Assembly: GCA_031272575.1 (NCBI GenBank) | Contig: JAISTO010000036.1 | Location: forward strand, 1 to 44,886 | Direction: 5' to 3' | Length of the DNA: 44,886 nucleotides | Source: Treponema sp. | GTDB lineage: Bacteria > Spirochaetota > Spirochaetia > Treponematales > Breznakiellaceae | Shown here: in pieces, positions 1,799 to 44,886 of the stretch | Numbering within the stretch: position 1 is the stretch's first letter | Layout of the letters: the number at the start of each line of letters is the position of its first letter | Program-made: the position numbers and the translations under genes | The notes under the pieces: generated by a model | Databases searched by the model: none | Told to the model about the DNA's origin: nothing | Seen by the model: the letters and a program-made list of their open reading frames with translations, nothing else

Positions 1799-3753
1799 CT
1801 CGCGCCCAGCGTGAACTGCGCGTCGAAGGCATTCACCCCCTTGATGTTCCCCTTGTTGGCCACGAACACGAAATCCGCCTGGCCGTAAACAGCAAGGCTT
1901 TTGACGCCGGGCATATCCCGCAGGATGTTCCACGCGCCTGAAAGGGACAGGGCCGTAAGGTAGTAGGGCGCGTTGCGGGCGGCGGCGTTTTCGTCGGCGT
2001 AGTTCCCCTGGTAGTGGTGGTCGGTGGGGGTGCTCTGGTAACCCGGGCGGTTCTGGTAATCACCCGCGGCATCTAAGCCAGCGTCCCAGCCGGCGCTGTT
2101 GTCCTCGATGTCGACCGCCGACCAGCGGGTCCACTTGTCGAAGGTGCCGTGCACCATGAACATGAGGTTGGCGCCGGCGCTCCACTTGCCGAAACTGCGG
2201 TACGCGGCGTTGGCGTTGAGCACGATGGCGTCGCCGCCCCAGCGGTAGCCGAGAAACTCCTCCACAAAGAGAAGCGGGGCGCCATCAGCGGCCGAATAGT
2301 AGCGGTTCGCCACCACATAGTTCAGTTCGCGGTTCTTTTTATTCGCGGTCATGCGCTGGGCGCGGAGGTACAGGTAGGGGTCGGTATAGGCGCCCTCAAA
2401 GGAGCCTGAAAGCATGCCGCCCCAGAGGGGGAAGGCCGTCTTTGCGCCCAGCATGAAGCCAAAGGCGTCGGGGTTGGCGTCGTCATCGGCGCCGGGCGCG
2501 GGCTCGCCGGGCAGGTGAAAGTCGTCCACCGCGATCTGGCCGTAGAGGTTGAGCGCCGGCAGGGCCGCCCAATCCACCTCCAGGCTCAAGAGGGAATTGG
2601 CATCGTAGGTGCGGTACAGGTTGTGCATGAGTATCGTGGGAAGGAAGTACTGCAAGTCCGCCTGCCCATCCTCCGGCTGGTACATGATAGCCTCGGAAAG
2701 GGCCATGTTCACCTTGTTGAATAGGCGCCATTCAAGCCGGTGGGCGATAAAAAAGTTCAGGCCATCGTGCGTCTGGCCGGCATCGTCATTCCAGACCACC
2801 GTCTCATTTTCATCGGTCGTGTAATACTCATTCGGCGAAGGAAAACCGGACACATTGAAAAGGTACTTGAACTGGTCATTGTAGGCCGTAAGGCGGACGT
2901 TGTTGTGATAGTCCACCTGGCTTCCCACCATAAAGTTGCCCGATTCCCCCGGCCCCCAGGAGAGCCGCTCCCGGCCGATTTCCAGGTTGAGGCCGGGCAC
3001 TCCCAGGGAAATAAACGTCCGGTTCGGGAAGTTGAAGTTCAGGTCGTTCAGTGTCGCGGGCGGCACCATGGGGATGTTTGTGCTGAAGGCGGAGGAGCCG
3101 AAAAAGGCCGATCCAACGGATTTTTTGCCGTTCTCGTCGAGAATGGCGTTGTACTTTTCGTTTCCCAGGGAAAACTCCCCGAAGCCGTAGGCGTAGGGCG
3201 TAAGGCGCAGTTCAAAATCCAGGGCCAGGAACGGCTTTGTCAGGTTCATGGGCCGAATGTAGTCGTCCAGGCGGGTAAAATCTTCGGGGTTGCTGTGAGC
3301 GTAGGCCTCGGCCGTCACCGCGCCTGAAAAGGTGAAGGCCCGCGCCGGCGCCTTGAGTGTCCGCTCCGCGTACTCGTAGGCGGCCCGCTCCCCGTCGGCC
3401 AGGTTCTCCGTATCAAGCCGCCCCAGCATGAGCAGCAACTCGTCTTCAGTCCAGGGCCCGGAGGTAGACGGCAGCGCCAGCCCCGCTCTGATATAGAGGG
3501 CTTTGATCGCCTGGTAGACCTCGCTGTCGATGGGGTAGACCTTCTGGTGGTTCCCCGCCTGCGCAAAAGCCGCCTGCGCACACAGCGCAAAGCAGAGCGC
3601 CGCCCCCGCGATTAACGCGCCGCGCCGCTTCCCCCCCCACGCGCCCCATGACGCGCTTTTTTGCGCCACGGGGGGGGGGGGACAAATTTTCACTTTAGAG
3701 AAACTGGACATATTATGAGCGCCCGGTCTCTCCATGTAACATACATTCTGCAT
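1786..3753 (-). CDS. large secreted/outer-membrane protein of unknown function with a C12 tract in its leader
   Basis: Part of ORF 1786..3891. AAAGGAG plus 6 nt precedes ATG 3753. The N-terminus is MQNVCYMERPGAHNMSSFSKVKICPPPPVAQKSASWGAWGGKRRGALIAGAALCFALCAQAAFAQ. The signal peptide lies 3' of the tract and the body is aromatic/Gly-rich. Confidence 0.6.
   Translation of the reverse strand: MQNVCYMERPGAHNMSSFSKVKICPPPPVAQKSASWGAWGGKRRGALIAGAALCFALCAQAAFAQAGNHQKVYPIDSEVYQAIKALYIRAGLALPSTSGPWTEDELLLMLGRLDTENLADGERAAYEYAERTLKAPARAFTFSGAVTAEAYAHSNPEDFTRLDDYIRPMNLTKPFLALDFELRLTPYAYGFGEFSLGNEKYNAILDENGKKSVGSAFFGSSAFSTNIPMVPPATLNDLNFNFPNRTFISLGVPGLNLEIGRERLSWGPGESGNFMVGSQVDYHNNVRLTAYNDQFKYLFNVSGFPSPNEYYTTDENETVVWNDDAGQTHDGLNFFIAHRLEWRLFNKVNMALSEAIMYQPEDGQADLQYFLPTILMHNLYRTYDANSLLSLEVDWAALPALNLYGQIAVDDFHLPGEPAPGADDDANPDAFGFMLGAKTAFPLWGGMLSGSFEGAYTDPYLYLRAQRMTANKKNRELNYVVANRYYSAADGAPLLFVEEFLGYRWGGDAIVLNANAAYRSFGKWSAGANLMFMVHGTFDKWTRWSAVDIEDNSAGWDAGLDAAGDYQNRPGYQSTPTDHHYQGNYADENAAARNAPYYLTALSLSGAWNILRDMPGVKSLAVYGQADFVFVANKGNIKGVNAFDAQFTLGASYGF
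3670..3681. repeat. homopolymer G12 (C12 on the coding strand)
   Basis: 12 consecutive G counted by hand. It encodes PPPP between the start codon and the signal peptide of the 1786..3753 gene and is currently in frame. Confidence 0.9.
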
Positions 3754-20318: not shown

Positions 20319-21395
20319 TCAGGCTGGTGTCAAAGCGCCGCCCTCGACCGTGTACACCACAGTGTCAGGTTTGCGGTACGCCTGATACGGTTCGCCTGGC
20401 AAAAAGGTGAAAAATGCCTGGTCGTAGGACGGCATATTTTCCAGGAAGCGCTTCCGCTTTTCGCCGTCCAGTTCGAGGAGCACATCGTCGAGCAGGAGCA
20501 CCGGGCGCTGTCCGGTCATCTCCGAAAAGCGCTGCGCCTGGGACACCCGCAGCAGCAGCGCGAGGAGCCGGCGCTGGCCCGTCGAGGCCCTGCCGGAAAA
20601 ATCAAGCCCCTTCCGCGAAAAAAGGTAGCGGTCGCGGTGGGGGCCGGACAGCGTTAGCGCGTGAAAGAGGTCCCCCTCGCGGCGCTGCGCCAGCAGGCCA
20701 ACAAGGGCCTCGAGCGAGGGCTCCTTCCAGGAGGGCGCGTAGCGGACAACCACCCCGTCGATGCCGGTGACCTCACGGAAGAGCGGCTCGAACACGAAAG
20801 AAAACTTTTCCGCGGCCTGAGAGCGTTTTTCCATTAAGAGCAGGCCGTACTGAGCGAGTTGGGGATCGATGGCATCGAGCAGCGAAAGGTTACCGCCATC
20901 TTTAAGCAGCGCGTTGCGCGTTTTCAGCACCTGCTTGTATCTGCGCAGATCGTCAACATAGAGGGGATCGTATAAACTCAAACTCTGGTCAAAAAACCAG
21001 CGCCGGCGCTCAGGGCTGCCGGAAACGAATTCCATATCTTCATGGCAGAACACGATGGCAGGACACGCGGATAGCAGTTCTTTGCGATCTTCAATTTTTT
21101 TGCCATCAATAAGAACCGTTTTTTTCCCCGCCTTGCAGGTAACGGCAATATCGCTGTGCAAAACTGAATCGCTTTTAAGAGACACTGCGCAGTCTTTTTC
21201 GCCGCTGCGGACCAACTCGCTGTCCCGCACCCCGCGAAACGACGAGGCGTAGGAACAGAAGTAGAGGGCTTCGAGAAAATTCGTTTTCCCCTGGCCGTTT
21301 TCGCCGACCAGAAAAATGTCTTTTCCCGGAGCGGCGGTTTCCGCGTCCGCAAGGTTGCGAAAACCAACCGTCCGCAGCGAAAGTACCGTACTCAA
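20319..21395 (-). CDS. recF: DNA replication/repair protein RecF
   Basis: Walker A GENGQGKTNFLEA, SMC-like signature TGQRRLLALLL, LLLDDV. 4-nt overlap with dnaN. Confidence 0.9.
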   Translation of the reverse strand: MSTVLSLRTVGFRNLADAETAAPGKDIFLVGENGQGKTNFLEALYFCSYASSFRGVRDSELVRSGEKDCAVSLKSDSVLHSDIAVTCKAGKKTVLIDGKKIEDRKELLSACPAIVFCHEDMEFVSGSPERRRWFFDQSLSLYDPLYVDDLRRYKQVLKTRNALLKDGGNLSLLDAIDPQLAQYGLLLMEKRSQAAEKFSFVFEPLFREVTGIDGVVVRYAPSWKEPSLEALVGLLAQRREGDLFHALTLSGPHRDRYLFSRKGLDFSGRASTGQRRLLALLLRVSQAQRFSEMTGQRPVLLLDDVLLELDGEKRKRFLENMPSYDQAFFTFLPGEPYQAYRKPDTVVYTVEGGALTPA

Positions 21396-22498
21396 TACTG
21401 CTGCGGCTGCATAGGCATGACGATGTGGAAGTAGTCCGACTCGGGCTCAGGCTTCATGGTGATAGCCTTGCTGTTATCCGTAAAGCGGACAACCACCTCT
21501 TCGCTTTCCATAGGCCGCAGCGGTTCGTCGATGTACCGGCAGTTGAACGATAGGGAAATGTTTTCCCCGCTGTACTCGCAGGAAATTTCTTTCCGCGCCT
21601 CGCCGATTTCGCTTTCGGTCGAGTAGACACTAATCGTGTCCTGGCTCAACTCGAAGAAGATGCGATGGGATTTCGATTCCATCATGGGTGACACCGTCTT
21701 GAGCGCGTCGAGCAGTTCCTGCCGATCTACCTTAAAGTATAAGGTTTGATCCTCAGGAATTACCCTGCGGTAGTTGGGGAAATTGCCCTCGATAAGGACG
21801 GACGACAGTTTGTACGACCCGAAAGAGATAAAAATGTTCCGCTCGGTGAGCGAAAGCGAAATTTCGCCTTCGTCGCCTGCCCGTTTCCTCACCACCTCGA
21901 GGATTTTCGGTGGGATAATGACCGGCTTGAAGTCTTTTATCCCCTGCGCCAATTCTTTTTTGATGAGGGAAAGCCTCCTGCCGTCTGTGGCCACCATGAT
22001 GAGGAAGTTTTCCTCTTTTTCGAAGAAAACGCCGTTCATAAAGTAGCGCGTTTCGTCATCTGACACAGCAAAGATGACGTTGGTGATCATGTCCTTGATT
22101 TCCGCCGCGGGAACCGCAAAGACATCCTCGCCTGCATCGGGGAAATCGGGGAACTTTTCGCTGGTGACGCTGTTCAACTGATACTTAACCCTTTTGGAGG
22201 GCATTTTGATCAGTACTTTTGAGTCAGCCTGCTCAAATTCGAGTTCTCCGTCCGGTATGGTGTTCAAAATTCCGCAGAATTTTCCACCAAGTACCGTGAC
22301 CGATCCCGGCTCGACGACCTCAACGGGCACAGTGGTCTCGAAATTGACCTTGTTGTCCGTTGCCTTGATTTTCAACGAGTCATTGGCAGCCTCCAGATAC
22401 ATGTTCGACAGTATCGAGGTCGTGTTCTGAGACCCAATGATCTCGTTGGCAATGGCGACTTCTTTAAGAAGCACGCTCCGTTCGCAAGTAAACTTCAT
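21392..22498 (-). CDS. dnaN: DNA polymerase III beta sliding clamp
   Basis: 368 aa with a typical N-terminus MKFTCERSVLLKEV. Position between dnaA and recF. Confidence 0.95.
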   Translation of the reverse strand: MKFTCERSVLLKEVAIANEIIGSQNTTSILSNMYLEAANDSLKIKATDNKVNFETTVPVEVVEPGSVTVLGGKFCGILNTIPDGELEFEQADSKVLIKMPSKRVKYQLNSVTSEKFPDFPDAGEDVFAVPAAEIKDMITNVIFAVSDDETRYFMNGVFFEKEENFLIMVATDGRRLSLIKKELAQGIKDFKPVIIPPKILEVVRKRAGDEGEISLSLTERNIFISFGSYKLSSVLIEGNFPNYRRVIPEDQTLYFKVDRQELLDALKTVSPMMESKSHRIFFELSQDTISVYSTESEIGEARKEISCEYSGENISLSFNCRYIDEPLRPMESEEVVVRFTDNSKAITMKPEPESDYFHIVMPMQPQQY

Positions 22499-22731
22499 GT
22501 TACTCTCCTATTATTGTGTTAATTAAAATAAAGAAGAAATAATAGTAGGCAAGGTGAATATGTGAATAACCTGCCTAAATGCTTATGTTAAAAGGATTTA
22601 GCATCCTGCTAACATGAGAATAAAGGCACTGTTTATTAGCACATTTTTACCTTACTTTACAATTTTTCTTCGTTATCGTCATTATTCACATAGTTTAACA
22701 TACTAGTAACATTTTTTCAAGAGGATATTGA
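22499..22731. other. AT-rich dnaA-dnaN spacer with DnaA boxes (candidate oriC part)
   Basis: TGTGAATAA (22561-22569), adjacent GGTGAATAT (22553-22561) and TTATTCACA (22682-22690). Strongly AT-rich against a GC-rich genome. Confidence 0.6.
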
Positions 22732-24153
22732 TTAGTTTCGCATGCTGTATTCTCTTGCTTTGCGTTTGCAGTTTTCCACGATTTCGTAGAAATCCGGCTC
22801 GGTTTTGAGGCGGGTGTCTACTTTTCTGCACGCAAAAATAACGGTGGCATGGTCTTTTCCGAATTCCGCGCCGATTTCGGTCGTGGAGTATTCGGTAATT
22901 TCCCGCGCCAGGTACATGGCGATATGACGGGGCGTTACCACGTTTTTGCTCTTTTTTTTGCTCCGCAGATCGTTGTGCGACAGGTGAAACTCGTCCGCGA
23001 CGGCCTTAAGGATGATGTCGATGGACATCGTTGGCTGACGCGGCGAGCCGATAAGGTCGCGCATCTGCTTTTGCGCATCGACAAGGGTGATGGGCCTGCC
23101 CGTAAGGTCCTGATACGCGATAAGGTTTTTGAAGGCCGAAAGGAGGTCCCGTACGTTGCTGGCGACATTTTTCCCCACCAGGTCGATTATTTCGGCGGGA
23201 ATATTGGCTTTTTTTGTTTCGTTGATCGAGCGCAGAATGAGGATACGGGTCTCGTACTTTAGGGGTTTTAAATCCACCTTGAGTCCGGACTCGAAGCGGG
23301 TGGTAAGCCGTTCGGGAATCTTTTTTAAATCTGAAATGAGCCGGTCGCAGGTAAATACGACCTGTTTTTTCGAGTCTGCCAGCGCGTTGAAGGTATGGAA
23401 TAACTCCTCCTGCGTTTGTTCTTTTCCTTCGAAAAATTGAATGTCGTCGAGCAAAAGCACATCGGTGGTGTAGCGAAATTTGTTTTTGAAGGAATTCATC
23501 TTTTGGGAGTTCATGGCCTCCAGAAACTCGTTTAAAAAGTTTTCCGCGGTAATATAGGTGACGCGGAGGTTAGAGTTGAAGTGAATGTAGTTCCCGATGG
23601 CCTGCATAAGGTGCGTTTTGCCCAGCCCCACGCCGCCGTAAATGAGCACCGGATTGTAGGCAGAGCCGGGATTCCGGGCAATGACATCCGCGGCTTTTGC
23701 CGCGTACTTGTTGTCCTCGCCGATAATGTAATTGTCGAAGGTGAAATCCTCGCGGAGGCTCGGCAGTTGCTTTCGCGGCGCCCTGGGGGCCTCTGTGGGG
23801 TGAATGTCTTTTGACTGCGGGGCGCTTGCCTTGTCCGGCGCTTCGGCAGGCTTCGGCTGCTGGCCGCTTGCAACGGCAGCCGCGGCTGCCGCATCTTCAT
23901 CGACCTTCAGGCTTACCGTGACTGTCGTTCCTGCCAGAGACGACAGTTTTTCCTGCAGCCGCGCTAAAAACTTGCGCTTAAACTGCGTCAAAAAGAAGGC
24001 CGAGGGAACCGAAACCTGCATTTCTTCTGGCCCGGAGGCGCTGAGAAAGCCGATCTTGCCCAGCCAGATAAAGTAATCGTCCTCTCCGCATTCAACGCGG
24101 AGTTCTTCGAGCGCCTCGTCAAAGAGAGCCTTGTAATCCCCTTTCTTAGCCAT
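22732..24153 (-). CDS. dnaA: chromosomal replication initiator DnaA
   Basis: GGVGLGKTHLMQAIGN Walker A, LLLDDIQF, and a C-terminal DNA-binding domain HIAMYLAREITEYSTTEIGAEFG..DHATV. Confidence 0.95.
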   Translation of the reverse strand: MAKKGDYKALFDEALEELRVECGEDDYFIWLGKIGFLSASGPEEMQVSVPSAFFLTQFKRKFLARLQEKLSSLAGTTVTVSLKVDEDAAAAAAVASGQQPKPAEAPDKASAPQSKDIHPTEAPRAPRKQLPSLREDFTFDNYIIGEDNKYAAKAADVIARNPGSAYNPVLIYGGVGLGKTHLMQAIGNYIHFNSNLRVTYITAENFLNEFLEAMNSQKMNSFKNKFRYTTDVLLLDDIQFFEGKEQTQEELFHTFNALADSKKQVVFTCDRLISDLKKIPERLTTRFESGLKVDLKPLKYETRILILRSINETKKANIPAEIIDLVGKNVASNVRDLLSAFKNLIAYQDLTGRPITLVDAQKQMRDLIGSPRQPTMSIDIILKAVADEFHLSHNDLRSKKKSKNVVTPRHIAMYLAREITEYSTTEIGAEFGKDHATVIFACRKVDTRLKTEPDFYEIVENCKRKAREYSMRN

Positions 24154-35524: not shown

Positions 35525-38500
35525 TCAAAACGCCCGCACAGGCCGAACCTGACCAGGAATGTCCTTCATGATGTAAGACAAGATCAGGTCATTCGAACTG
35601 CCATCGGAATTCAGACACCATGCATAGCTTCTGTTGCTCTCGGATGAAGACGCGTATATGGGCCAAATATTCGTAAAGTTTCCAGCCCCCTGCTGTTTCA
35701 GATTGATGTTCATCTGATTTATCTCATCCTTGCTCGGCAGGAACCAGTCATCGTAACCGCCGTACTCGTAATCCGCACAGGCCTGCGCCGCAAGGTGTAA
35801 GCCAGAACCTAACTGAGGTGTGCCATGATTATGCGTTACCAATGCAGCTGTGTTTGTTGCGCCTGTACCGATATCTGTCCCGGTACCGCCACACAATGTG
35901 CCATATCCACCCCACTGGTATGCTGTTGCCAAATCGGCAGGCGCGGCTTCGAGGTAATGGCAAGTAATGCTGTCAGAAACAAAACCGGTGGTGTCGGCAT
36001 AGAATATCCATCCTCCCGCAGGACCAGTATCCCCTATCTGGTATGCCAGGGTTGTCTGACTCACAGCAGCACTCAATGCGCCTTCTCCTTCCGCGTTCAC
36101 CGCGCTTACCTTGTAGTAATAAGTTGTTTCTTTTGTAAGACCAGTGTCGGTATACGAAGTTTCAGTAATGCCTGAAGTAATAGGAGTAGTGTAGGGACCA
36201 TCAACGCTGTCTGCCCGATAGACCGTGTAGGTGTCTGCACCAGTCACCGCATTCCAGTTAAGTACTAATATGCTGCTCAGGGATTGCGCGGCCGCGGTTA
36301 ATCCATCAGGCGCGCCAGGTTTTGTGATTGTGTTCACTACGGTACTGTAATCGGTGACCACTGTATCGTGCCATGCCTTCACCCACACATAGTAAGTCGT
36401 TCCGTTTGAAAGACCGGTAAGCGTATGCGGACTGGTCACCACGCTCAGCCTCACCGCCGCACTAGAGATATTTGCGGTGTGATAATACAGGTCATACGCG
36501 GCGGCGCCGTCCGTGCTGTCCCACGAAACCTGTATGCTCTCGTCAGATAAAGTAACCGCGTTTACCCCGGTGGGCGCGGCAGGAGCGGGAACTCCGCTTG
36601 CGCTTGCGCTCAATGGGCTTTCCCCCAGAGCGTTCTTCGCTTTCAACCACACATAGTACAGCGTCCCGATGTTAAGATCGGCAATGACATGGGGTATCGT
36701 GACATCGCTTTCCTTCGTTGCGGCAGTGCTGTCATTCGTTGTACTGTAATAGAGATCATATCCTGTCGCGCCATCAACCTCTGTCCATGTTACCATGAGT
36801 CCACCCACACCCGCTGGGGTTACCTCGATCGCGGTTGGTGCATTTACGCGAGTCTTCCCGCTCGCGCTCGCGAACGCGCCGGTTATCGCGCCGTGCAGTG
36901 CCCGCACCCACACCGAGTAAGTCGTGTTCGCGGCGAGGCCGCTGAGCGTCGCGTTTATTGCCGCGGCCTCGACGCTCTGCGCCGTGTCGGGGCTGCTTCC
37001 GGTGCTGTAACGCACCTCGTACTTTTCCGCGCCGGCTATGGCGTCCCACGAGACCGCGAGTGAGGTATTGCTGAGCGGCGCGGCCTGCACGTTGGCGGGC
37101 GCGGGCGCGGTTGTGGTCACCTCTATCGTGTCCGTCCACAGCGCGCCCCCGTTGTTGAACGTGAGCGTGAGCGGCAGCACGGTTCCCATGGGGCAGCCGG
37201 CGCTTGCGCTAAAGGTGAAGGTTCCATATAGGCTTCCCCCGTAAAAGAACACTATATTCGCGTTCGTGCTCTGCGTGCTGTTGAGCGTTTTATAGTAACC
37301 GCCGGACAGATTTCCGACCGACAGTATAGTATTTTGACCGATGGTAATATACTCACTCTCTGACGAAAGCGTCACCTGGGCGCTGGAGATAGTGGTCGTT
37401 GTATTGTTCTTTATACGAATGTCCAAATACGCTGACGCGCCGGGAGTCACATTAACGATATTCTTATCGATGAGCTCCTTCAAAGCAAAACCGGTTATCG
37501 ACAGGGGATAGGGCGCGGTGTTTCCCAGCGTTACGGTGCAGCAGTCAATATCGTTTTCATGGATGTCCGCCATAATCTGCCCGTCAAGAAGAGTCGCGTC
37601 CGCCTCGGTATCATTGGGTTCATTGATCTTGAACGCGCTAAACGAGGAGAAGTTCGTCTGCGGCATCGTGTTTATGCCGAGTGAATAGATCGCCTCGCTG
37701 GATTCGGCGGTGCCGGAAATTACGGCAAGGTAAGGCGCTGACGACCAGGGCATGGTCACGCTTGAACGATAGACCGTCCCGTCATGCGCGGTGCTGAACC
37801 GACACGCGCCGGAGAGCGGGCTCAGAATAAGGCCCGCCACGGGGTACTGTGACGCGGCGTTGAAAGTTACCGGCGTTTTGAAAAAGCGCACGGACACCGA
37901 GTCCGTCCAGGTTTTGGGATGCTGCGGATCGGTCGTGGCATCGGTTATCGTAATGGAGATTTTTTTGAAGACCGCATCCGCGTCAACCGGCGTACAGCCG
38001 ATGGTTATTTCGCTGGTGGACACGGTCTCGCCCGGCTTAAGGGTCCCGGTGCAGAGCCGATTCGATATGCCGGACTGCGTTTGCGTTGCAAGTCCGTCCT
38101 CAAACGCAAGCGTGTAACTCGGCGCGTAGCAGCCCGCGTTTCCCGTGTTGGTCACGTTGATGGTGAAGGTGAACGTGTCGGCCCCCGCGTACCCATACCG
38201 CGCGTTGACCGACGTGCCTGCCGGCGCGATGCGCGCTGGCGCGATGCGCGCCTTGAAGTTAACGCCCCCGCCCGTGAGGTGGAGCGTCCCGAGGTGGTCA
38301 CCGTTCGCGCCGGGCGTTACGCGCGCGGTGTCACCTGCGGCGCGCAGTTCGTACTCGTCCCCCGGGATAAGGCCCTGCGCGGTAAAGGTGCCGTCGCTTG
38401 CGGTTGTTGCCGTCACCGTGTTGGCCGCGTCGTTCAGGTTGACCAGAGTCACCTCGAGGCCTGCGACGCTCCGCCCCGCGCCGGCGTCAGCGAGTGTGCC

Positions 38501-38806
38501 GCTCACCTGCGCGTTGGCGACCCGCGAGGCGTAGAGGAAGCACGCGCTGCCCGCATTCGTCACCCTGATGACCCGCGCGGACTGCTTTTCGAGGCGCGGC
38601 GTCCCGGGGTAGGATTCGCCGTTTACGGTGATGGTATTGCTGGTAATGTACCACGCTTCGTCCGCGTCTATGCGGAGCCATTCACCCCAAAACTCGCTCC
38701 CGTAGCGGGGGCCGGTTTCGGAGCCGGTAGGGGTTTTACACGCCGCCCCGCAGAGGACGGCGAGCGCGAGGAGGAGTCCCCGTTTTACGCGATTTTTTGC
38801 AGGACG
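35525..38806 (-). CDS. giant surface lipoprotein: CarboxypepD_reg-like domain, four Fn3 repeats, C-terminal DUF1566-like domain; 5' end interrupted by C11 tract
   Basis: The track ORF 35525..38563 starts at GTG. The frame stays open upstream to the tract and there encodes RPAKNRVKRGLLLALAVLCGAACK (lipoprotein signal). Four repeats of about 90 aa have the Fn3 pattern (L.V.W....GA..Y.+YY....Y.V.V.A). The tail YDDWFLPSKDEINQM resembles DUF1566. Confidence 0.8.
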   Translation of the reverse strand, partial: RPAKNRVKRGLLLALAVLCGAACKTPTGSETGPRYGSEFWGEWLRIDADEAWYITSNTITVNGESYPGTPRLEKQSARVIRVTNAGSACFLYASRVANAQVSGTLADAGAGRSVAGLEVTLVNLNDAANTVTATTASDGTFTAQGLIPGDEYELRAAGDTARVTPGANGDHLGTLHLTGGGVNFKARIAPARIAPAGTSVNARYGYAGADTFTFTINVTNTGNAGCYAPSYTLAFEDGLATQTQSGISNRLCTGTLKPGETVSTSEITIGCTPVDADAVFKKISITITDATTDPQHPKTWTDSVSVRFFKTPVTFNAASQYPVAGLILSPLSGACRFSTAHDGTVYRSSVTMPWSSAPYLAVISGTAESSEAIYSLGINTMPQTNFSSFSAFKINEPNDTEADATLLDGQIMADIHENDIDCCTVTLGNTAPYPLSITGFALKELIDKNIVNVTPGASAYLDIRIKNNTTTTISSAQVTLSSESEYITIGQNTILSVGNLSGGYYKTLNSTQSTNANIVFFYGGSLYGTFTFSASAGCPMGTVLPLTLTFNNGGALWTDTIEVTTTAPAPANVQAAPLSNTSLAVSWDAIAGAEKYEVRYSTGSSPDTAQSVEAAAINATLSGLAANTTYSVWVRALHGAITGAFASASGKTRVNAPTAIEVTPAGVGGLMVTWTEVDGATGYDLYYSTTNDSTAATKESDVTIPHVIADLNIGTLYYVWLKAKNALGESPLSASASGVPAPAAPTGVNAVTLSDESIQVSWDSTDGAAAYDLYYHTANISSAAVRLSVVTSPHTLTGLSNGTTYYVWVKAWHDTVVTDYSTVVNTITKPGAPDGLTAAAQSLSSILVLNWNAVTGADTYTVYRADSVDGPYTTPITSGITETSYTDTGLTKETTYYYKVSAVNAEGEGALSAAVSQTTLAYQIGDTGPAGGWIFYADTTGFVSDSITCHYLEAAPADLATAYQWGGYGTLCGGTGTDIGTGATNTAALVTHNHGTPQLGSGLHLAAQACADYEYGGYDDWFLPSKDEINQMNINLKQQGAGNFTNIWPIYASSSESNRSYAWCLNSDGSSNDLILSYIMKDIPGQVRPVRAF

Positions 38807-39140: not shown

Positions 39141-40495
39141 ATGGCTAATTTTAGGCAAGGGCAAGTTATCCCCCTGGCGGGGGGGGGGGCGAGGCAGAAA
39201 TTGTTCGCACTTTGGGGGAGGGCGGACAAGGCACGGTGTATGAGGTTCGCGTTGGCGGTAAGCCTTATGCGCTGAAATGGTACCACGCGGGAAAACTGAA
39301 GGACAAAGCGGCCTTTCGCGAAAACCTTCGATGCAATATCGAAGAGCCGGAGCGGAGCATGGCGGATTGTCCCATGTTTCTGTGGCCCAAGTTCCTGACT
39401 GAGGAACAGGACGGCAGTTTCGGGTATGTGATGGACCTGCGGCCGCCGGACTACACTGATTTTCCGGCGATTCTGAATCGCAAGGACCGAAAGGGGCAGC
39501 GGGTGGAGTTTGCCTCCACCGAAACAATGATCGCTGCCGCCTTGAATCTGGTGAACGCTTTCCGCGCGCTGCATCGCAAGGGGCTTTCCTACCAGGATTT
39601 AAACGACGGAAACTTCTTCATCAATATTGATACAGGAGCCGTGCTGATTTGTGACAACGACAATGTCACGCCGGACGGCGACGTAAACTCAGGCGGCATA
39701 GGGGGCAAACCCGGGTACATGGCGCCGGAAATTGTCACAGGCAAGGCGCAGCCTTCCGAGCGTACCGATTGCCATTCACTCGCGGTTGTTCTTTTCAAAT
39801 TATTCTTTCGTCATAGTCCGCTGCAAGGGGCGGCTTACGAAAAACTTCCCTGCATGACCGAAAAGCGCGAGATGGAACTGTTCGGGACGAATCCGGTATT
39901 TGTCTACGATCCGGATGATGATACAAACCGGCCGGTCAACGGCGTACACAACAATGTGATAAAACTCTGGCCGCTCTTCCCCGCGTTTTTCAAAGACGCG
40001 TTTGTTCTCTCGTTTGCTCAAGGGATGAAAGCCCCGCAGCGCCGCATCGTCGAAAACGAGTGGCAAAAAATCCTCGTGCGTCTCCGCGACGAATGGTATG
40101 TTACCTGCGTGTCCTGCGGGCGCGCCATTTTTCTGCACCCGGAAAACAAAGAGGCGGGGCTTCGCTGCGGCGGCTGCGGGTCACAGTCTACCTATCCGCG
40201 AAGCCTTTCTATCAAGAAGGGCGCACTCGTGTACACGGTGCCGCTCTTCCCCGCAAAAAAACTCTACGACTGGCACACCACCGAGTCGAGTGAAGACTTC
40301 ATCACCATAACGGGCGAAGTGGTGATGAATAAAAACAATCCCTCGCTTTGGGGAATCAAGAATTGCTCAAACGAGGCGTGGCGCATGGTCACCCCCGACG
40401 GCACAGCAAAAGAAGTGCCCGCCGAGGGCGCTGTTCCTATCGGGGCGGGCGTTAAGGTCATCTTTAACGGCCTTGACGGAATAATAACTCAGTAA
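39141..40495 (+). CDS. Ser/Thr protein kinase with C-terminal zinc ribbon; frameshifted at G11 tract (track ORF 39212..40495)
   Basis: AGGAG plus 5 nt precedes ATG 39141. After the tract a different frame encodes GEAEIVRTLGEGGQGTVYEVRVGGKPYALKWY (Gly-rich loop and Lys), HRKGLSYQDLNDGN, GKPGYMAPE and CVSC...CGGC. A +1 change in the tract joins the two frames. Confidence 0.8.
39179..39189. repeat. homopolymer G11
   Basis: Counted by hand: 2 G ending 39171-39180 plus 9 G starting 39181. It begins in codon 13 of the kinase reading frame that starts at ATG 39141. Confidence 0.9.
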
Positions 40496-40510
40496 AGGAG
40501 AATCTCAAAA

Positions 40511-41242
40511 ATGAGTGACGCAATTTACGGCAATGTGGAGGGCATCATACGCAGGCAGATGGTGCTGTTCTTTTTAATTGACACCTCCGGCAGTATGCAG
40601 GGGCAGAAAATCAGCGCGGTCAATACGGCCATCCGCGAAGTGGTACCGGAACTGGCGGACATCGGGGGCGCGGACATCGATCTGAAGATCGCGGTGCTTG
40701 AGTTTTCGATGGGCTGCAAATGGCAGAACCCCGCGGGGCCCGTATCGGTGGACGATTTCATGTGGAACAACCTCAGCGCGGAAGGCGGCACCGATATGGG
40801 AACGGCCTTTCGGGAATTGAACGAGCGCCTCTCGCGCAACTCGTTTCTAAAAGCGCCGTCGGCATCGGTCGCGCCGGTGATACTGCTCCTTTCGGACGGC
40901 CAGCCGAGTGACGATTACCAAAGCGCGCTTGCCGCCCTCAAAAACAACAACTGGTTTAAGAGCGCGGTAAAAGTCGCGCTCGCTATTGGCAGTGACGCTG
41001 ACTGCAATGTACTCGCGGAATTCACCGGCACCAGCGAAACCGTGCTTAGCGCCTATACGCCGGATATCCTGCGCAAGATGATACGCACCGTGTCGATTAC
41101 CTCCGCGCAGATCGGTTCCCGCAGCCAGCCCTTACAGGAAGGGGATATTGTGAGCAAGCAGGACACCATGGCAGCGGAGATCAAAAATCTCAAGCAGACG
41201 GATCCGGATTACAATTCCGCGGATACGCTGGAAGGCTGGTAA
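40511..41242 (+). CDS. von Willebrand factor A domain protein (TerY-like)
   Basis: MIDAS motif in FFLIDTSGSMQG, later GGTDMG and LLSDGQPSD. AAAGGAG SD. Confidence 0.85.
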   Translation: MSDAIYGNVEGIIRRQMVLFFLIDTSGSMQGQKISAVNTAIREVVPELADIGGADIDLKIAVLEFSMGCKWQNPAGPVSVDDFMWNNLSAEGGTDMGTAFRELNERLSRNSFLKAPSASVAPVILLLSDGQPSDDYQSALAALKNNNWFKSAVKVALAIGSDADCNVLAEFTGTSETVLSAYTPDILRKMIRTVSITSAQIGSRSQPLQEGDIVSKQDTMAAEIKNLKQTDPDYNSADTLEGW

Positions 41243-42105
41243 TGTACCTCAGTTTTAGCGCCCGCGCACAGGGGGACAGCCACAAGGAAAAGGACATCCC
41301 CTGCCAGGATGCGGTCTTCACGTACGTCGATCAAAAGACCGGCGGCCTCGCGATTGTGGCAGACGGCCATGGAAGCGAAAAACACTTTCGCAGCGACGTG
41401 GGATCTGCACTTGCGGTTACTGTTGCGCATACGACAATCGTGGAGTTCCTTCATATATTGAATGATGGCTCCATGCGCCGCGGTGCATTTGACCAGCGCT
41501 ATACCGATGAAATCACCATGATGCAGGAGCAACTGGCGCAGCTTGAACGGACGATTATTACGCGGTGGCGTTCCGCGGTACTGCAGCATTTTGCGGCACA
41601 CCCGCTCAGCGAGCGTGAACAGGCACTCTGTACGCGGGAAAACCTTACGCTCACCGATGAGGATGCACAGGTCCGTGTGTACGGTACGACTCTTATTGCC
41701 GCACTCGCGCATAGCAAGTTGTGGTTTGTCATTCAGATCGGGGACGGCAAATGCGTAGTGCTTGATGACGAAGGCACTCCGTATTTCCCGCCGGAACTCG
41801 ACGATGAAAGTCTTGCCGGAGGCCAGACGACTTCCCTGTGCGACTCGGATGCGGCAGGTCATTTTCGCTGTGATTTCGGCTTCGAGCGCATTAAGGGCAT
41901 TACCGTGGCCACCGACGGCGTAAGCGACTCTTTTTTGCCCGAGGAGTATCTCAAACTGAATGCCCGTCTCTTTGCCGATTTTCTCGCTAACCACAAGAAG
42001 GCGCAAAAGGGGGTGGAGCAGTCTATTGCGGTATGGTCAACAAAAGGCTCCCGCGATGATGTATCCATGGCGGGAGTCTTTTACAAAAATGGTTTATTGG
42101 AGTGA
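41242..42105 (+). CDS. PP2C-family protein phosphatase
   Basis: IPCQDAV, LAIVADGHGS and VATDGVSD motifs. The start overlaps the vWA stop (TAATG). Confidence 0.8.
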   Translation: MYLSFSARAQGDSHKEKDIPCQDAVFTYVDQKTGGLAIVADGHGSEKHFRSDVGSALAVTVAHTTIVEFLHILNDGSMRRGAFDQRYTDEITMMQEQLAQLERTIITRWRSAVLQHFAAHPLSEREQALCTRENLTLTDEDAQVRVYGTTLIAALAHSKLWFVIQIGDGKCVVLDDEGTPYFPPELDDESLAGGQTTSLCDSDAAGHFRCDFGFERIKGITVATDGVSDSFLPEEYLKLNARLFADFLANHKKAQKGVEQSIAVWSTKGSRDDVSMAGVFYKNGLLE

Positions 42106-42120
42106 AAGGAGAAGTATAGC

Positions 42121-43368
42121 ATGAACACGAATTTGTTAACCGCGATAAAGGCGTTGGCGGCGAAGGGCGCTGATGTGTTTAGTGACCTGAAGCGCGTTGA
42201 CGAAAGTCTGCCGGTGTTTGCCAACAAGGAGGCTGCGGCAGAGCGCAGGGCTTTTCTTGCGGTGCTGGCATCGGGGCTTCCCGCGAAGTTGCGCGAGACC
42301 AAGGATACCGCGGCGCGCGCAAGTCTGGTCAACCGGGCCGCGCATTCGCTTTCCGGCGCGAACGAGGCGCCGCCAGCGCTGGCGCGGGAAATCGCCGCGC
42401 TCGTCGAGGCCCTCTGTCCCGCAAAAAGCGCCGCTGCCTCGCCCCCCGCGCCGCCGGTACCGCCGCGGCAGGTTCCGGCCGCGGGGGCGCCGCTGCCGCA
42501 AAGTCCCGAGGCGGCCAAGCCGCCAGCGCGGGCCCTGCGGCTGAGCCGAAAAACGGTGTTTTTCGCTCTTGCGGCAACGGGAGGTGGGCTCGTTACCGAA
42601 AGTATCTGTGAGTGCATACCGTGGTTTAACCAGCATGGGGGGACTTTTTGGTCGGTCATTGTTGAGACTGCCGTATGGTTTGGGGTGATTGCACTGGGCT
42701 TAATCGCGTGTCTTCTCGCGGCCCAGAGTGGGTATCTGAAAAAGCCGCCGAGCGCCCCCACTGTGGTAAAGGCGGTGCTTTTGGGAGTCCTTTCCGGCGC
42801 GGCCGCTGGCGGGCTTGCACAAGCGGTGTTTGCATACACTTCGCAGATTTCAACGGCAGTAGAAATCGTCAGCCGCATACTCTGCTGGGGCTTTGCGGGC
42901 GCGGGGGTAGGGCTTGGTACGAGTTTCTTCGTTCCCAACTATCCGATAAAGCGCTCCCTGCCCGCCGGACTCGTTGGGGGGCTTTTGGGGGGCGTGCTGT
43001 TCCGCGCCTCATTCGGCATTATGCCGGAAGGCATCGCCCGGGTAGTGAGCATCGCCATTCTGGGGCTGTGCATAGGCGCGACTATCGCCATAGCCGAGGA
43101 AATCCTCCGTGAAGCATGGATCACGGTTGACTGGGGGCACAACGAACGCGTGAATGTCACGCTCGGTACCAGGCCGGTGGTACTTGGTTCCGCGCCGGAA
43201 GCGGACATCTTTCTTTCGCGGCAGAACTATCCTGCGGTTGCGCTTGTCGTCAGTATAGACGGACAAAAAGTGATTGTCGACAACAAACTGAACGGCCAAC
43301 GAACCGAAATGGCAAACGGCAGCGAGTTGAGTTTGGGGACAGTCAAAGTTACCGTACACAAACGGTAA
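42121..43368 (+). CDS. membrane protein: shared N-terminal domain, Pro/Ala linker, multi-TM region, C-terminal FHA domain
   Basis: Hydrophobic segments between about residues 150 and 330. The C-terminus VVLGSAPEADIFLSRQNYPAVALVVSIDGQKVIVDNKLNGQRTEMANGSEL has the FHA pattern. SD AAAGGAG. Confidence 0.75.
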   Translation: MNTNLLTAIKALAAKGADVFSDLKRVDESLPVFANKEAAAERRAFLAVLASGLPAKLRETKDTAARASLVNRAAHSLSGANEAPPALAREIAALVEALCPAKSAAASPPAPPVPPRQVPAAGAPLPQSPEAAKPPARALRLSRKTVFFALAATGGGLVTESICECIPWFNQHGGTFWSVIVETAVWFGVIALGLIACLLAAQSGYLKKPPSAPTVVKAVLLGVLSGAAAGGLAQAVFAYTSQISTAVEIVSRILCWGFAGAGVGLGTSFFVPNYPIKRSLPAGLVGGLLGGVLFRASFGIMPEGIARVVSIAILGLCIGATIAIAEEILREAWITVDWGHNERVNVTLGTRPVVLGSAPEADIFLSRQNYPAVALVVSIDGQKVIVDNKLNGQRTEMANGSELSLGTVKVTVHKR

Positions 43369-43383
43369 CAAAAGGAGCATACT

Positions 43384-44745
43384 ATGAACACAGTGTTATT
43401 GACCGTCATTCAAAAAATGGTCGCTGAGTCAGGCGAATCGGTACTTGCTGACTCGCGGCGTGTTGCAGGTTACCTTGCGGATTTTGCCGCCAGGGAGCCG
43501 AAGGCGCAGCGGAACACGCTGGTGAAGTGCCTGGAACAGGGGGCTTACGCCGCGCTGAAAAGGGCTGCTCCCCATGAGCGCGGCGCGGTGAAGGAGCGGC
43601 TGGCGCGCAGGCTGCATACCGATGAGGGGTTTGATCGGTCTCTCTGTGAAGACAGCGTCAACCTGCTGGCCGTTGTGTTGTTCGGTCACGGCGAAGCGGC
43701 TGCGGGGGAAACCGCGGCGGCAATTCCGTCTACGGGGGACGAGTGGGTAACGGTACCGGAAGCGCGGAAGGCGGCGTTGGCGCAGGGGGATGCGGGCAAC
43801 AGGCCAATACCGCAAACTGCCGTGGCGAGGAAGGAACGGAAACGGTACTTGTCAGTGGGGATAGCGGCTTCCGTGCTTGTGCTTGGACTGGGTGTTGTCT
43901 TTTGGATGAACCGATACAACAATGCGGGCAACGCATCCCACCTTGGTCCAACTTTGGACATGGTGCGCATACAGGGTGGCACGTTCACGATGGGGAGCCC
44001 GTCGTCGGAGCCGGATCGTGAGGACGATGAGGTGCAGCATCGGGTGACGCTGAGTTCGTTTTACATGGGGAAGTACGAGGTCACTCAGAAGGAGTGGCAG
44101 GCGCTCATGGGGACGAATCCCAGTTCCTTCAAGGGTGACAACTTGCCGGTGGAGTGCGTGAGTTGGTACGATGCGGTGGAGTACTGTAACGCGCGTAGCA
44201 AAAAAGAAGGGCTTACGCCTGCGTACACGATAAATAAGACTCGACAGGATCCAAACAACACCAGCAGTTATGACAGTCTCAAGTGGACGGTGACCTGGAA
44301 CCGGAAGGCGAACGGGTACCGGTTGCCGACGGAGGCGGAGTGGGAGTACGCCTGCCGCGCCGGGACGACGGGGCCGTTCAACACGGGGAACAACATTACG
44401 ACGAGCCAGGCGAACTATAACGGGAACTATCCCTACAACGGGAACGCGAAGGGGCAGTATCGGGAGAAGACGACGGCGGTGGGGAGTTTCCAGCCCAATG
44501 CCTGGGGCTTGTACGATATGCATGGCAATGTCTGGGAGTGGTGCTGGGACTGGTACGGGAATTACTCAAGCGGCGCCCAGACGGACCCCGAAGGCCCAAC
44601 GGGCCCCGCCTCTTCGTGGTCGCGCCGCGTTCGCCGGGGCGGCAGTTGGTACAACAGCGGCCAGTACCTGCGTTCGGCCAACCGGGGCTACTACAGCCCG
44701 GGCAACCGGCTCTACTACCTCGGTTTTCGGCTGGTGCGTCCCTGA
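43384..44745 (+). CDS. membrane-anchored FGE-sulfatase (SUMF1/C-type-lectin fold) domain protein with DGR-VR-like C-terminus
   Basis: Shared N-terminal domain, one TM (YLSVGIAASVLVLGLGVVFWM), then GGTFTMGSP, YRLPTEAEWEYACRAG, GNVWEWCWDWY and RGGSW...GFRLVRP. Confidence 0.85.
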   Translation: MNTVLLTVIQKMVAESGESVLADSRRVAGYLADFAAREPKAQRNTLVKCLEQGAYAALKRAAPHERGAVKERLARRLHTDEGFDRSLCEDSVNLLAVVLFGHGEAAAGETAAAIPSTGDEWVTVPEARKAALAQGDAGNRPIPQTAVARKERKRYLSVGIAASVLVLGLGVVFWMNRYNNAGNASHLGPTLDMVRIQGGTFTMGSPSSEPDREDDEVQHRVTLSSFYMGKYEVTQKEWQALMGTNPSSFKGDNLPVECVSWYDAVEYCNARSKKEGLTPAYTINKTRQDPNNTSSYDSLKWTVTWNRKANGYRLPTEAEWEYACRAGTTGPFNTGNNITTSQANYNGNYPYNGNAKGQYREKTTAVGSFQPNAWGLYDMHGNVWEWCWDWYGNYSSGAQTDPEGPTGPASSWSRRVRRGGSWYNSGQYLRSANRGYYSPGNRLYYLGFRLVRP

Positions 44746-44782
44746 GTTCCGCAACAAAAAACAGGGGCTATAGTGGAACAAC

Positions 44783-44811
44783 TTGACAAGCAGTTGCTAT
44801 TATAGTATAGT
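44783..44811 (+). promoter_or_regulatory. consensus promoter in leaderless layout
   Basis: TTGACA, 17 nt, TATAGT, 6 nt, ATG 44818. Confidence 0.5.
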
Positions 44812-44817
44812 GTCTAT

Positions 44818-44886
44818 ATGGCATACTCAATCGATACACGGGAGATAGCCCTGCGGTACTTGGAAACGCACACCTATCAGAATACA
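44818..44886 (+). mobile_element. 5' end of an IS630-family-like transposase gene (truncated by the window edge)
   Basis: MAYSIDTREIALRYLETHTYQNT resembles the MxYSxDLRxxV HTH N-terminus typical of IS630-type transposases. Only 23 codons are visible. Confidence 0.45.

Follow-up and report, generated by a model that had tools for sequence, protein, structure and literature searches.

The 3′-terminal ~125 bp of an open reading frame (ORF) in a Treponema sp. contig were very probably written by a diversity-generating retroelement (DGR). The contig (JAISTO010000036.1, assembly GCA_031272575.1) was analyzed over its whole length of 44.9 kb (44,886 nucleotides [nt]), which is referred to here as the window. 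The ORF (positions 43384 to 44745, + strand) encodes a 453-amino-acid (aa) protein whose C terminus reads RGGSWYNSGQYLRSANRGYYSPGNRLYYLGFRLVRP. Its final segment (44620 to 44742, + strand; aa 413 to 453) constitutes a putative variable repeat (VR), recognized from variable codons of the form NNC (N, any nucleotide), an adenine-poor scaffold, a match to the template repeats (TRs) of related loci, and the entropy of the same positions among homologs. With moderate confidence, we favor the reading that this VR is an active remote target, served in trans by a TR and a reverse transcriptase (RT) located elsewhere in the spirochete genome, as in Treponema denticola. We infer the existence and place of the TR-RT pair, as well as current diversification.

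An earlier interpretation of the same DNA, made from the letters alone and referred to below as the original prediction, had proposed that the C terminus of this protein is a DGR-type VR on an FGE/C-type-lectin scaffold like that of TvpA of T. denticola; the homology searches and the repeat signature described below both agree with it. Residues 192 to 452 matched the Pfam FGE-sulfatase family (PF03781; E = 1.2e-58). The best Protein Data Bank (PDB) match of this domain was TvpA itself (2Y3C; E = 3.2e-42), in an alignment that covered the VR to the final residue, whereas true FGEs matched at about 1e-24 only. The VR lies in the FGE/C-type-lectin fold at the C terminus of the protein, as is expected of a DGR target. 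When the protein was aligned with human FGE (2AFT) and its relatives, the catalytic FGE cysteine pair was absent, the cysteine-bearing segment reading YNSGQY-LRSANR in the target protein. Because this pair is missing, the FGE-type domain, as judged from its sequence, is a binding scaffold rather than an enzyme. N-terminal to it, the protein comprises an all-alpha domain and a single predicted transmembrane (TM) helix (43849 to 43905, + strand; aa 156 to 174; Kyte-Doolittle mean of 2.28 over 19 aa). This helix precedes the FGE/VR domain, which probably puts the variable face outside the cytoplasm. The 90% identity cluster of the protein had a single member, with no further copy of the gene at an identity of at least 90%.

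The codons of the VR carry a footprint of retroelement activity. The 16 codons singled out by the original prediction were indeed all NNC, and 18 NNC variable codons in total span positions 44623 (R414) to 44721 (L446). Third-position C was found in 16/16 variable codons but in only 1/13 scaffold codons of the same stretch (Fisher’s exact test, p = 2.5e-7); when the two upstream CGC codons (R414 and R417) were added, C-ending codons made up 18/18 of the variable and 5/25 of the scaffold set (p = 1e-7). The original prediction had also named genome-wide codon bias as an explanation that would undo it. The genome is GC-rich, and C is its commonest third base (0.39). However, the chance of observing all 16 codons given their amino acids was 5e-5 under the codon usage of the window and 2e-6 under that of the gene's own upstream portion, where GGG and TTG/CTG are the preferred codons, and the bias explanation fails. 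The VR scaffold is likewise depleted of adenine (2 adenines in 69 nt, compared with 24% A upstream; P = 1.4e-6), every upstream 69-nt window having at least 8. Both scaffold adenines fall in the codons of S421 and Q427, which vary among homologs. Adenine-specific mutagenesis is expected to leave such a footprint, with changes limited to positions 1 and 2 of AAC-type codons and a scaffold poor in adenine. Binding surfaces rich in Tyr, Ser, Gly, and Asn also arise without DGRs, but protein-level selection can fix neither synonymous third positions nor the avoidance of adenine and is therefore not the cause of this pattern. As a negative control, the lectin-like Lcl_C C terminus encoded at 35525 to 35750 in the same window exhibited neither the NNC nor the adenine-free signature.

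To place the VR among its relatives, we compared 160 loci encoding related proteins (loci are numbered with the prefix L and homologous proteins with P), searching them for pairs of repeats that mismatch at the adenines of one copy. Authentic TR/VR pairs were detected in 13 of the fetched loci, most of which also contained DGR-type RT motifs. At one of them (L017), a single TR serves two VRs with 0 non-adenine mismatches and 16 to 18 A-to-N mismatches. The AAC codons of authentic TRs, which occupy the bracketed positions of S[N]RV[N]RGG.W[N][N][N]..[N].RSA[N]R[N].[N].P.[N]R[N][N][N].GFRL, are the NNC positions of the window; it is this mapping that contributes R414 and R417 to the variable set. 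Across 91 homologs with the same spacing, mean entropy was 3.06 bits at the 18 variable positions and 0.71 bits at scaffold positions (p = 2e-7). Compared with its true ortholog (L166), the window protein is identical at 22/23 scaffold positions but at only 1/18 variable positions. The variable positions were not merely picked post hoc: they agree with the AAC codons of TRs found independently and with the high-entropy columns of the homologs. Among the 156 VR-type motifs examined, that of the window was the purest and the only one with 16/16 NNC codons; motifs with a verified TR had 4 to 13 of 16.

A VR standing apart from its TR and RT is expected in this lineage, since Treponema DGRs normally act on remote targets. 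The T. denticola DGR is credited with seven nonadjacent targets, more than any other DGR in the survey, and remote targets were found only among nonphage DGRs (Wu et al., 2018). Such targets are invisible to contig-based surveys (Roux et al., 2021), and Doré et al. (2024, PNAS) describe both targets served in trans and DGR loci that transposons have broken up. The window resembles the T. denticola system and TvpA (2Y3C) in its spirochete host, a C-type-lectin fold belonging to the FGE subtype, the extreme C-terminal position of the VR, and the AAC-type codons; the scattering of T. denticola targets away from the RT is a further likeness. The two differ in that TvpA is a lipoprotein without an appended signaling context, whereas the window protein combines a helical domain and a TM helix and is encoded in an operon with kinase, vWA, and PP2C genes. 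Moreover, the window organism is a distant termite-gut spirochete (DnaA at most 59% identical) for which no TR or RT was seen. The original prediction had left three scenarios for the missing TR and RT: a location just beyond the edge of the contig, separation by an insertion sequence (IS), or action in trans. Of these, action in trans fits best with what is known of Treponema DGRs and with the related loci.

Were the VR an active remote target, an AAC-rich TR and an RT elsewhere in the genome would drive mutagenic retrohoming into it: TR RNA would be reverse transcribed with adenine-specific errors, and the resulting cDNA would replace the VR, guided by its constant 3′ end. A candidate guide is the conserved 22-nt 3′ element GTGCGTCCCTGAGTTCCGCAAC (44734 to 44755, + strand), found by locus comparison, which runs from the last VR bases across the stop codon into 10 nt of noncoding flank. 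This element recurs at L166 and L167 (~49% protein identity), where it differs in two places (one substitution and one 1-nt indel), and is mostly also present at L099. By sequence position and conservation, it is a candidate homing element of the kind termed initiation of mutagenic homing (IMH)-like. A search of viral contigs for it returned 0 matches, and neither a terminator nor an Rfam element was detected after the VR. The cognate TR is predicted to read TCGTGGTCGAACCGCGTTAACCGGGGCGGCAGTTGGAACAACAACAACCAGAACCTGCGTTCGGCCAACCGGAACAACAACAACCCGAACAACCGGAACAACAACAACGGTTTTCGGCTGGTGCGTCCC or, as a search pattern with mismatches allowed only at TR adenines, TCGTGGTCGAACCGCGTTAACCGGGGCGGCAGTTGGAACAACAACAACCAGAACCTGCGTTCGGCCAACCGGAACAACAACAACCCGAACAACCGGAACAACAACAACGGTTTTCGGCTGGTGCGTCCCTGAGTTCCGCAAC.

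Several results weigh against an active remote target. The original prediction had reported neither a second copy of the VR nor an RT or Avd gene in the window, and both statements stand: blastn (word size, 7) returned chance matches only (E > 0.2), blastn together with an adenine-aware sliding scan detected no TR on either strand, and Pfam searches of all large ORFs detected no RT or Avd. No TR for the window VR was present among 168 fetched loci, the best candidate having 26 non-adenine mismatches. A masked-VR pattern gave 0 matches in genome, metagenome, and viral collections; these collections did not return the window itself either, and the zero count therefore reflects an absence of data rather than the absence of a TR. 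Among the loci analyzed, we could demonstrate no DGR RT in any termite-gut spirochete, the one RT locus that we followed (L117) being from Bacteroidales. No hairpin was found after the VR (z = −0.2).

The same absence of a TR and an RT from the contig would be expected of a fossil VR, that is, a segment that a DGR once wrote but whose TR and RT have since been lost or inactivated, leaving a fixed, ordinary C terminus. Members with decayed VR-like ends and no matching TR are common in this family (the remote gene of L117, with ~10 non-adenine mismatches; copy 1 of L003; and L006); they count against current activity and indicate that orphan or fossil VRs exist. Doré et al. (2024) likewise described TR-matching remote targets without diversification, in addition to DGR loci disrupted by transposons. 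However, all 18/18 variable codons of the window VR end in C, its scaffold is still poor in adenine, and no synonymous decay is visible. Together with a signature purer than that of any other among the 156 motifs, this suggests that the last retrohoming event was recent, although it bounds the time only loosely. We therefore consider a fossil VR unlikely.

A second alternative places the TR and RT, now or formerly, directly downstream of the VR, from which a mobile element, an assembly break, or both would have separated them. The contig ends 141 bp past the target stop codon, within an ORF that is led by a promoter-like site and possibly encodes a transposase, and IS copies and similar repeats typically break assemblies. 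A canonical TR lies within about 1 kb of its VR, and the TR-to-VR distances at the authentic loci were 0.2 to 2 kb. On the other hand, the orthologous operons have no downstream RT: L166 and L167 carry a YafQ toxin-antitoxin pair at this place, and L006 carries TerY-C and the kinase/vWA/PP2C triad. No RT was present within 10 kb at any termite-gut spirochete FGE locus fetched, and none adjoined the genes of the close homologs P0040, P0049, P0059, P0045, P0086, and P0054. Nor did any search tie the terminal ORF to an IS. That ORF (44820 to 44886, + strand) begins with an ATG 74 nt after the target stop codon, encodes MAYSIDTREIALRYLETHTYQNT, and runs off the contig end after 22 codons. The original prediction had called it IS630-like, and we take its MAYSxDxR motif to resemble the N termini of IS630-type transposases. 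Searches of Pfam, NCBIfam, plasmids (tblastn), the fetched loci (motif), and viral contigs (back-translated pattern) returned no match to it. On this evidence, a truncated cis cassette appears improbable, more so than a fossil.

A reading without any DGR, in which codon bias, chance, or lectin-loop selection produced the NNC codons and the Tyr/Asn/Ser/Gly-rich pattern, can appeal to the composition of the genome and to comparable binding surfaces of other origin, but it is highly improbable and effectively refuted by the codon-usage probabilities, the avoidance of C in neighboring scaffold codons, the adenine depletion, the exact positional match to the AAC codons of real TRs, the negative Lcl_C control, and the silence of amino acid selection on synonymous third positions.

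Four related loci are of interest in their own right. A termite-gut contig (L001; JGI Ga0268262_10001707) contains two VRs (429 to 566 and 3391 to 3525) that look written from one template: their scaffold codons are identical, including synonymous sites, except for one GGA/GGG difference, and all other differences fall at AAC-type positions. One of the two genes encodes a caspase(C14)-FGE protein and lies beside a ribosomal protein operon. No RT was detected within the ~10 kb fetched, and the presence of two VRs of apparently common template without a nearby RT implies a DGR acting in trans at that locus. Another contig (L003, 3103 to 9048; JGI Ga0596927_0000093) carries three paralogous genes for 288-aa secreted FGE proteins. 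The VRs of copies 2 and 3 are clean, of the NNC type, and distinct from one another; that of copy 1 has a decayed look, and no RT was seen in 15 kb. In a metagenome-assembled genome (MAG) of Treponema sp. (Po218_bin31; L006, 346 to 6060), the VR-like ends are partly decayed, with codons such as TTT, GGA, AAA, AGT, and CTT. The fourth locus (L117, 204 to 6429; 37% GC) comprises a noncoding TR (222 to 350) and an RT gene (530 to 1534), with adjoining Abi_2 and HEPN genes. A Sel1-FGE gene lies 5 kb away, and its VR differs from the TR at ~10 non-adenine positions; the gene may be a target that is drifting or was written from another template. With its TR, RT, and remote FGE gene, this locus was considered as a proxy for a spirochete DGR but was rejected on account of its 37% GC content and Bacteroidales-type RT.

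DGR proteins of the TvpA/FGE type, targets that are remote and served in trans, and lectin sensors diversified by DGRs on signaling or defense modules are already known, and the VR of the window is a further example of them. Its value lies in that a remote target can be recognized from one contig lacking both TR and RT: the purity of the NNC codons, the adenine-poor scaffold, and the match to TRs of the family are enough. Metagenome surveys are currently unable to recognize remote targets in this way (Roux et al., 2021).

The target gene belongs to a conserved operon. Upstream of it lie genes for a Ser/Thr kinase whose C-terminal zinc ribbon is accompanied by a beta-rich tail (39212 to 40495, + strand; PF00069, E = 2.4e-14; orthologs 40 to 42% identical), a stand-alone TerY-like vWA protein (40511 to 41242, + strand; PF00092, E = 2.5e-9; orthologs in L006 and L166 46 to 51% identical), and a PP2C phosphatase (41242 to 42105, + strand; PF13672, E = 6.8e-33; orthologs in L006 and L166). 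The catalytic motifs of the kinase are intact (ALK, YQDLNDGN, DND, and GYMAPE), and its zinc ribbon has the form CxxC...CxxC. Between the phosphatase gene and the target gene, a fourth ORF (42121 to 43368, + strand) encodes a membrane protein with an N-terminal domain that it shares with the target protein, a Pro-rich linker, ~4 to 5 TM helices, and an FHA-like (YscD-type) C terminus. The similarity of this C terminus to Pfam Yop-YscD_cpl is marginal (E = 0.0035; 18 bits, below the cutoff of 33.2), as is that to EscD/YscD in the PDB (6UID; E = 0.026). The original prediction had envisaged a receptor wired to a kinase/PP2C/FHA module; the link to kinase and PP2C is supported by the conservation of the operon, and the FHA part has the marginal similarities just given behind it. 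The operon is conserved in other termite-gut spirochetes, in the same gene order in L166 and L167 and in the order FGE, TerY-C, kinase, vWA, PP2C, FGE in L006.

The N-terminal domain of the target protein (43384 to 43698, + strand; aa 1 to 105), delimited by BLASTP, AlphaFold2 (AF2), and ortholog comparison, is predicted to be cytoplasmic and all-alpha, with 6 to 7 helices (AF2 pLDDT, >90). It had no Pfam match and no significant PDB neighbor in a fold search (best E = 0.87). The domain matches aa 1 to 58 of the membrane protein encoded at 42121 (BLASTP, 3e-8) and follows the pattern MNT.LL..I....G..L.....R.KA...D.A..E.K..R over ~100 aa. Besides the two copies in the window (43384 to 43698 and 42121 to 42435), copies are encoded in L166 (3855 to 4170), L168 (2306 to 2600), and L006 (346 to 650 and 4984 to 5280). 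It thus recurs in the FGE protein, in its FHA-like membrane neighbor, and in all FGE proteins linked to a triad, and this shared domain may be an adaptor. The FGE proteins of L006 have no obvious TM helix by eye, unlike the membrane-anchored proteins of the window, L166, and L168; the lectin domains of L006 may be cytoplasmic.

The three upstream genes (39212 to 42105) have the architecture of a TerY-P triad. According to Anantharaman et al. (2012), as relayed by Bell et al. (2024; PMC11090510), such a triad consists of a TerY-like vWA protein, a PP2C phosphatase, and a Ser/Thr kinase with a C-terminal zinc ribbon. The window agrees in having all three components in one operon and the CxxC...CxxC ribbon on the kinase, with TerY-C adjoining in L006. 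It differs in the association with an FGE lectin receptor, as the known triads in the literature consulted are tied to DNA-processing or restriction modules or to tellurite resistance genes. Sequence-level similarity to the known triads is also weak: in PADLOC, the vWA protein matched TerY at 3.6e-4, the kinase matched only generic kinase models, and the PP2C protein had no match.

Kaur et al. (2020, eLife) and Doré et al. (2024) have described CLec/FGE sensor domains, diversified by DGRs, in conflict and signaling systems. These are of a TvpA-related subtype and share with the window protein a VR domain that is always C-terminal and preceded by other domains at the N terminus. In those systems, too, the TR sometimes acts in trans from elsewhere in the genome, transposons break loci, and the partners include vWA, kinase, and peptidase proteins. 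Unlike the window, they are organized around MoxR-vWA-VMAP or STAND NTPases and come from cyanobacteria, Chromatiales, and the like. The window has no NTPase; there, a TerY-P-like triad is the partner, and a membrane protein of its own, with an N-terminal domain not described before, is the sensor.

As part of the favored reading, we propose that the protein acts as a single-pass membrane receptor with a hypervariable lectin face, probably extracytoplasmic, and that its cytoplasmic N-terminal helical domain would couple ligand binding to the adjacent kinase/PP2C/vWA switch. A more far-reaching and tentative possibility, which we regard as somewhat doubtful, is that a TerY-P-type phospho-switch has the DGR-diversified membrane lectin as its dedicated input receptor, ligand binding outside the cell being relayed through the all-alpha adaptor to the triad. 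We infer every step of this signaling route, from the hypervariable receptor to the switch that it would feed. By virtue of its tie to a conserved TerY-P-like operon through an uncharacterized adaptor domain, the target is a candidate for what feeds signals to TerY-P triads. If this proved true, triads whose trigger is unknown would gain a programmable, antigen-type sensor, and a spirochete would possess a receptor-kinase pathway with somatic-style hypervariation.

A few further features of the window were noted. Residue W412 (TGG, 44617 to 44619) immediately precedes the VR; homologs nearly always have Gly here (SSGS, compared with SSWS in the window), and homolog P0095 matches the 20 residues preceding W412 exactly. 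Exact-protein look-ups returned no record for either P0095 or the target protein. W412 itself may mark one more adenine site of the TR (AGG to TGG), in which case the VR would extend one codon farther upstream. Just upstream of the truncated terminal ORF lies a near-consensus sigma-70 promoter-like site (TTGACA-17-TATAGT; 44783 to 44811, + strand), which had 11/12 matches (0.1 expected in shuffled sequences) and would be unusually strong for an intergenic region of this contig. Divergent from the kinase operon, a gene at 35525 to 38563 (− strand) encodes a surface-type protein of 1,012 aa that carries four fn3 repeats and, at its C terminus, an Lcl_C domain (formerly DUF1566). This C terminus was considered as a second DGR target in the window and rejected, as it lacks the signature. 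The contig is chromosomal, carrying a dnaA-dnaN-recF cluster (20319 to 24153). The best match of its DnaA was 59% identical, and the named relatives were Treponema sp. MAGs, Termitinemataceae, and Breznakiella, consistent with a termite-gut-type spirochete. A local GC minimum of 0.49 at 22 to 24 kb falls within the recF-dnaN-dnaA cluster, and this region is probably the chromosomal replication origin region.

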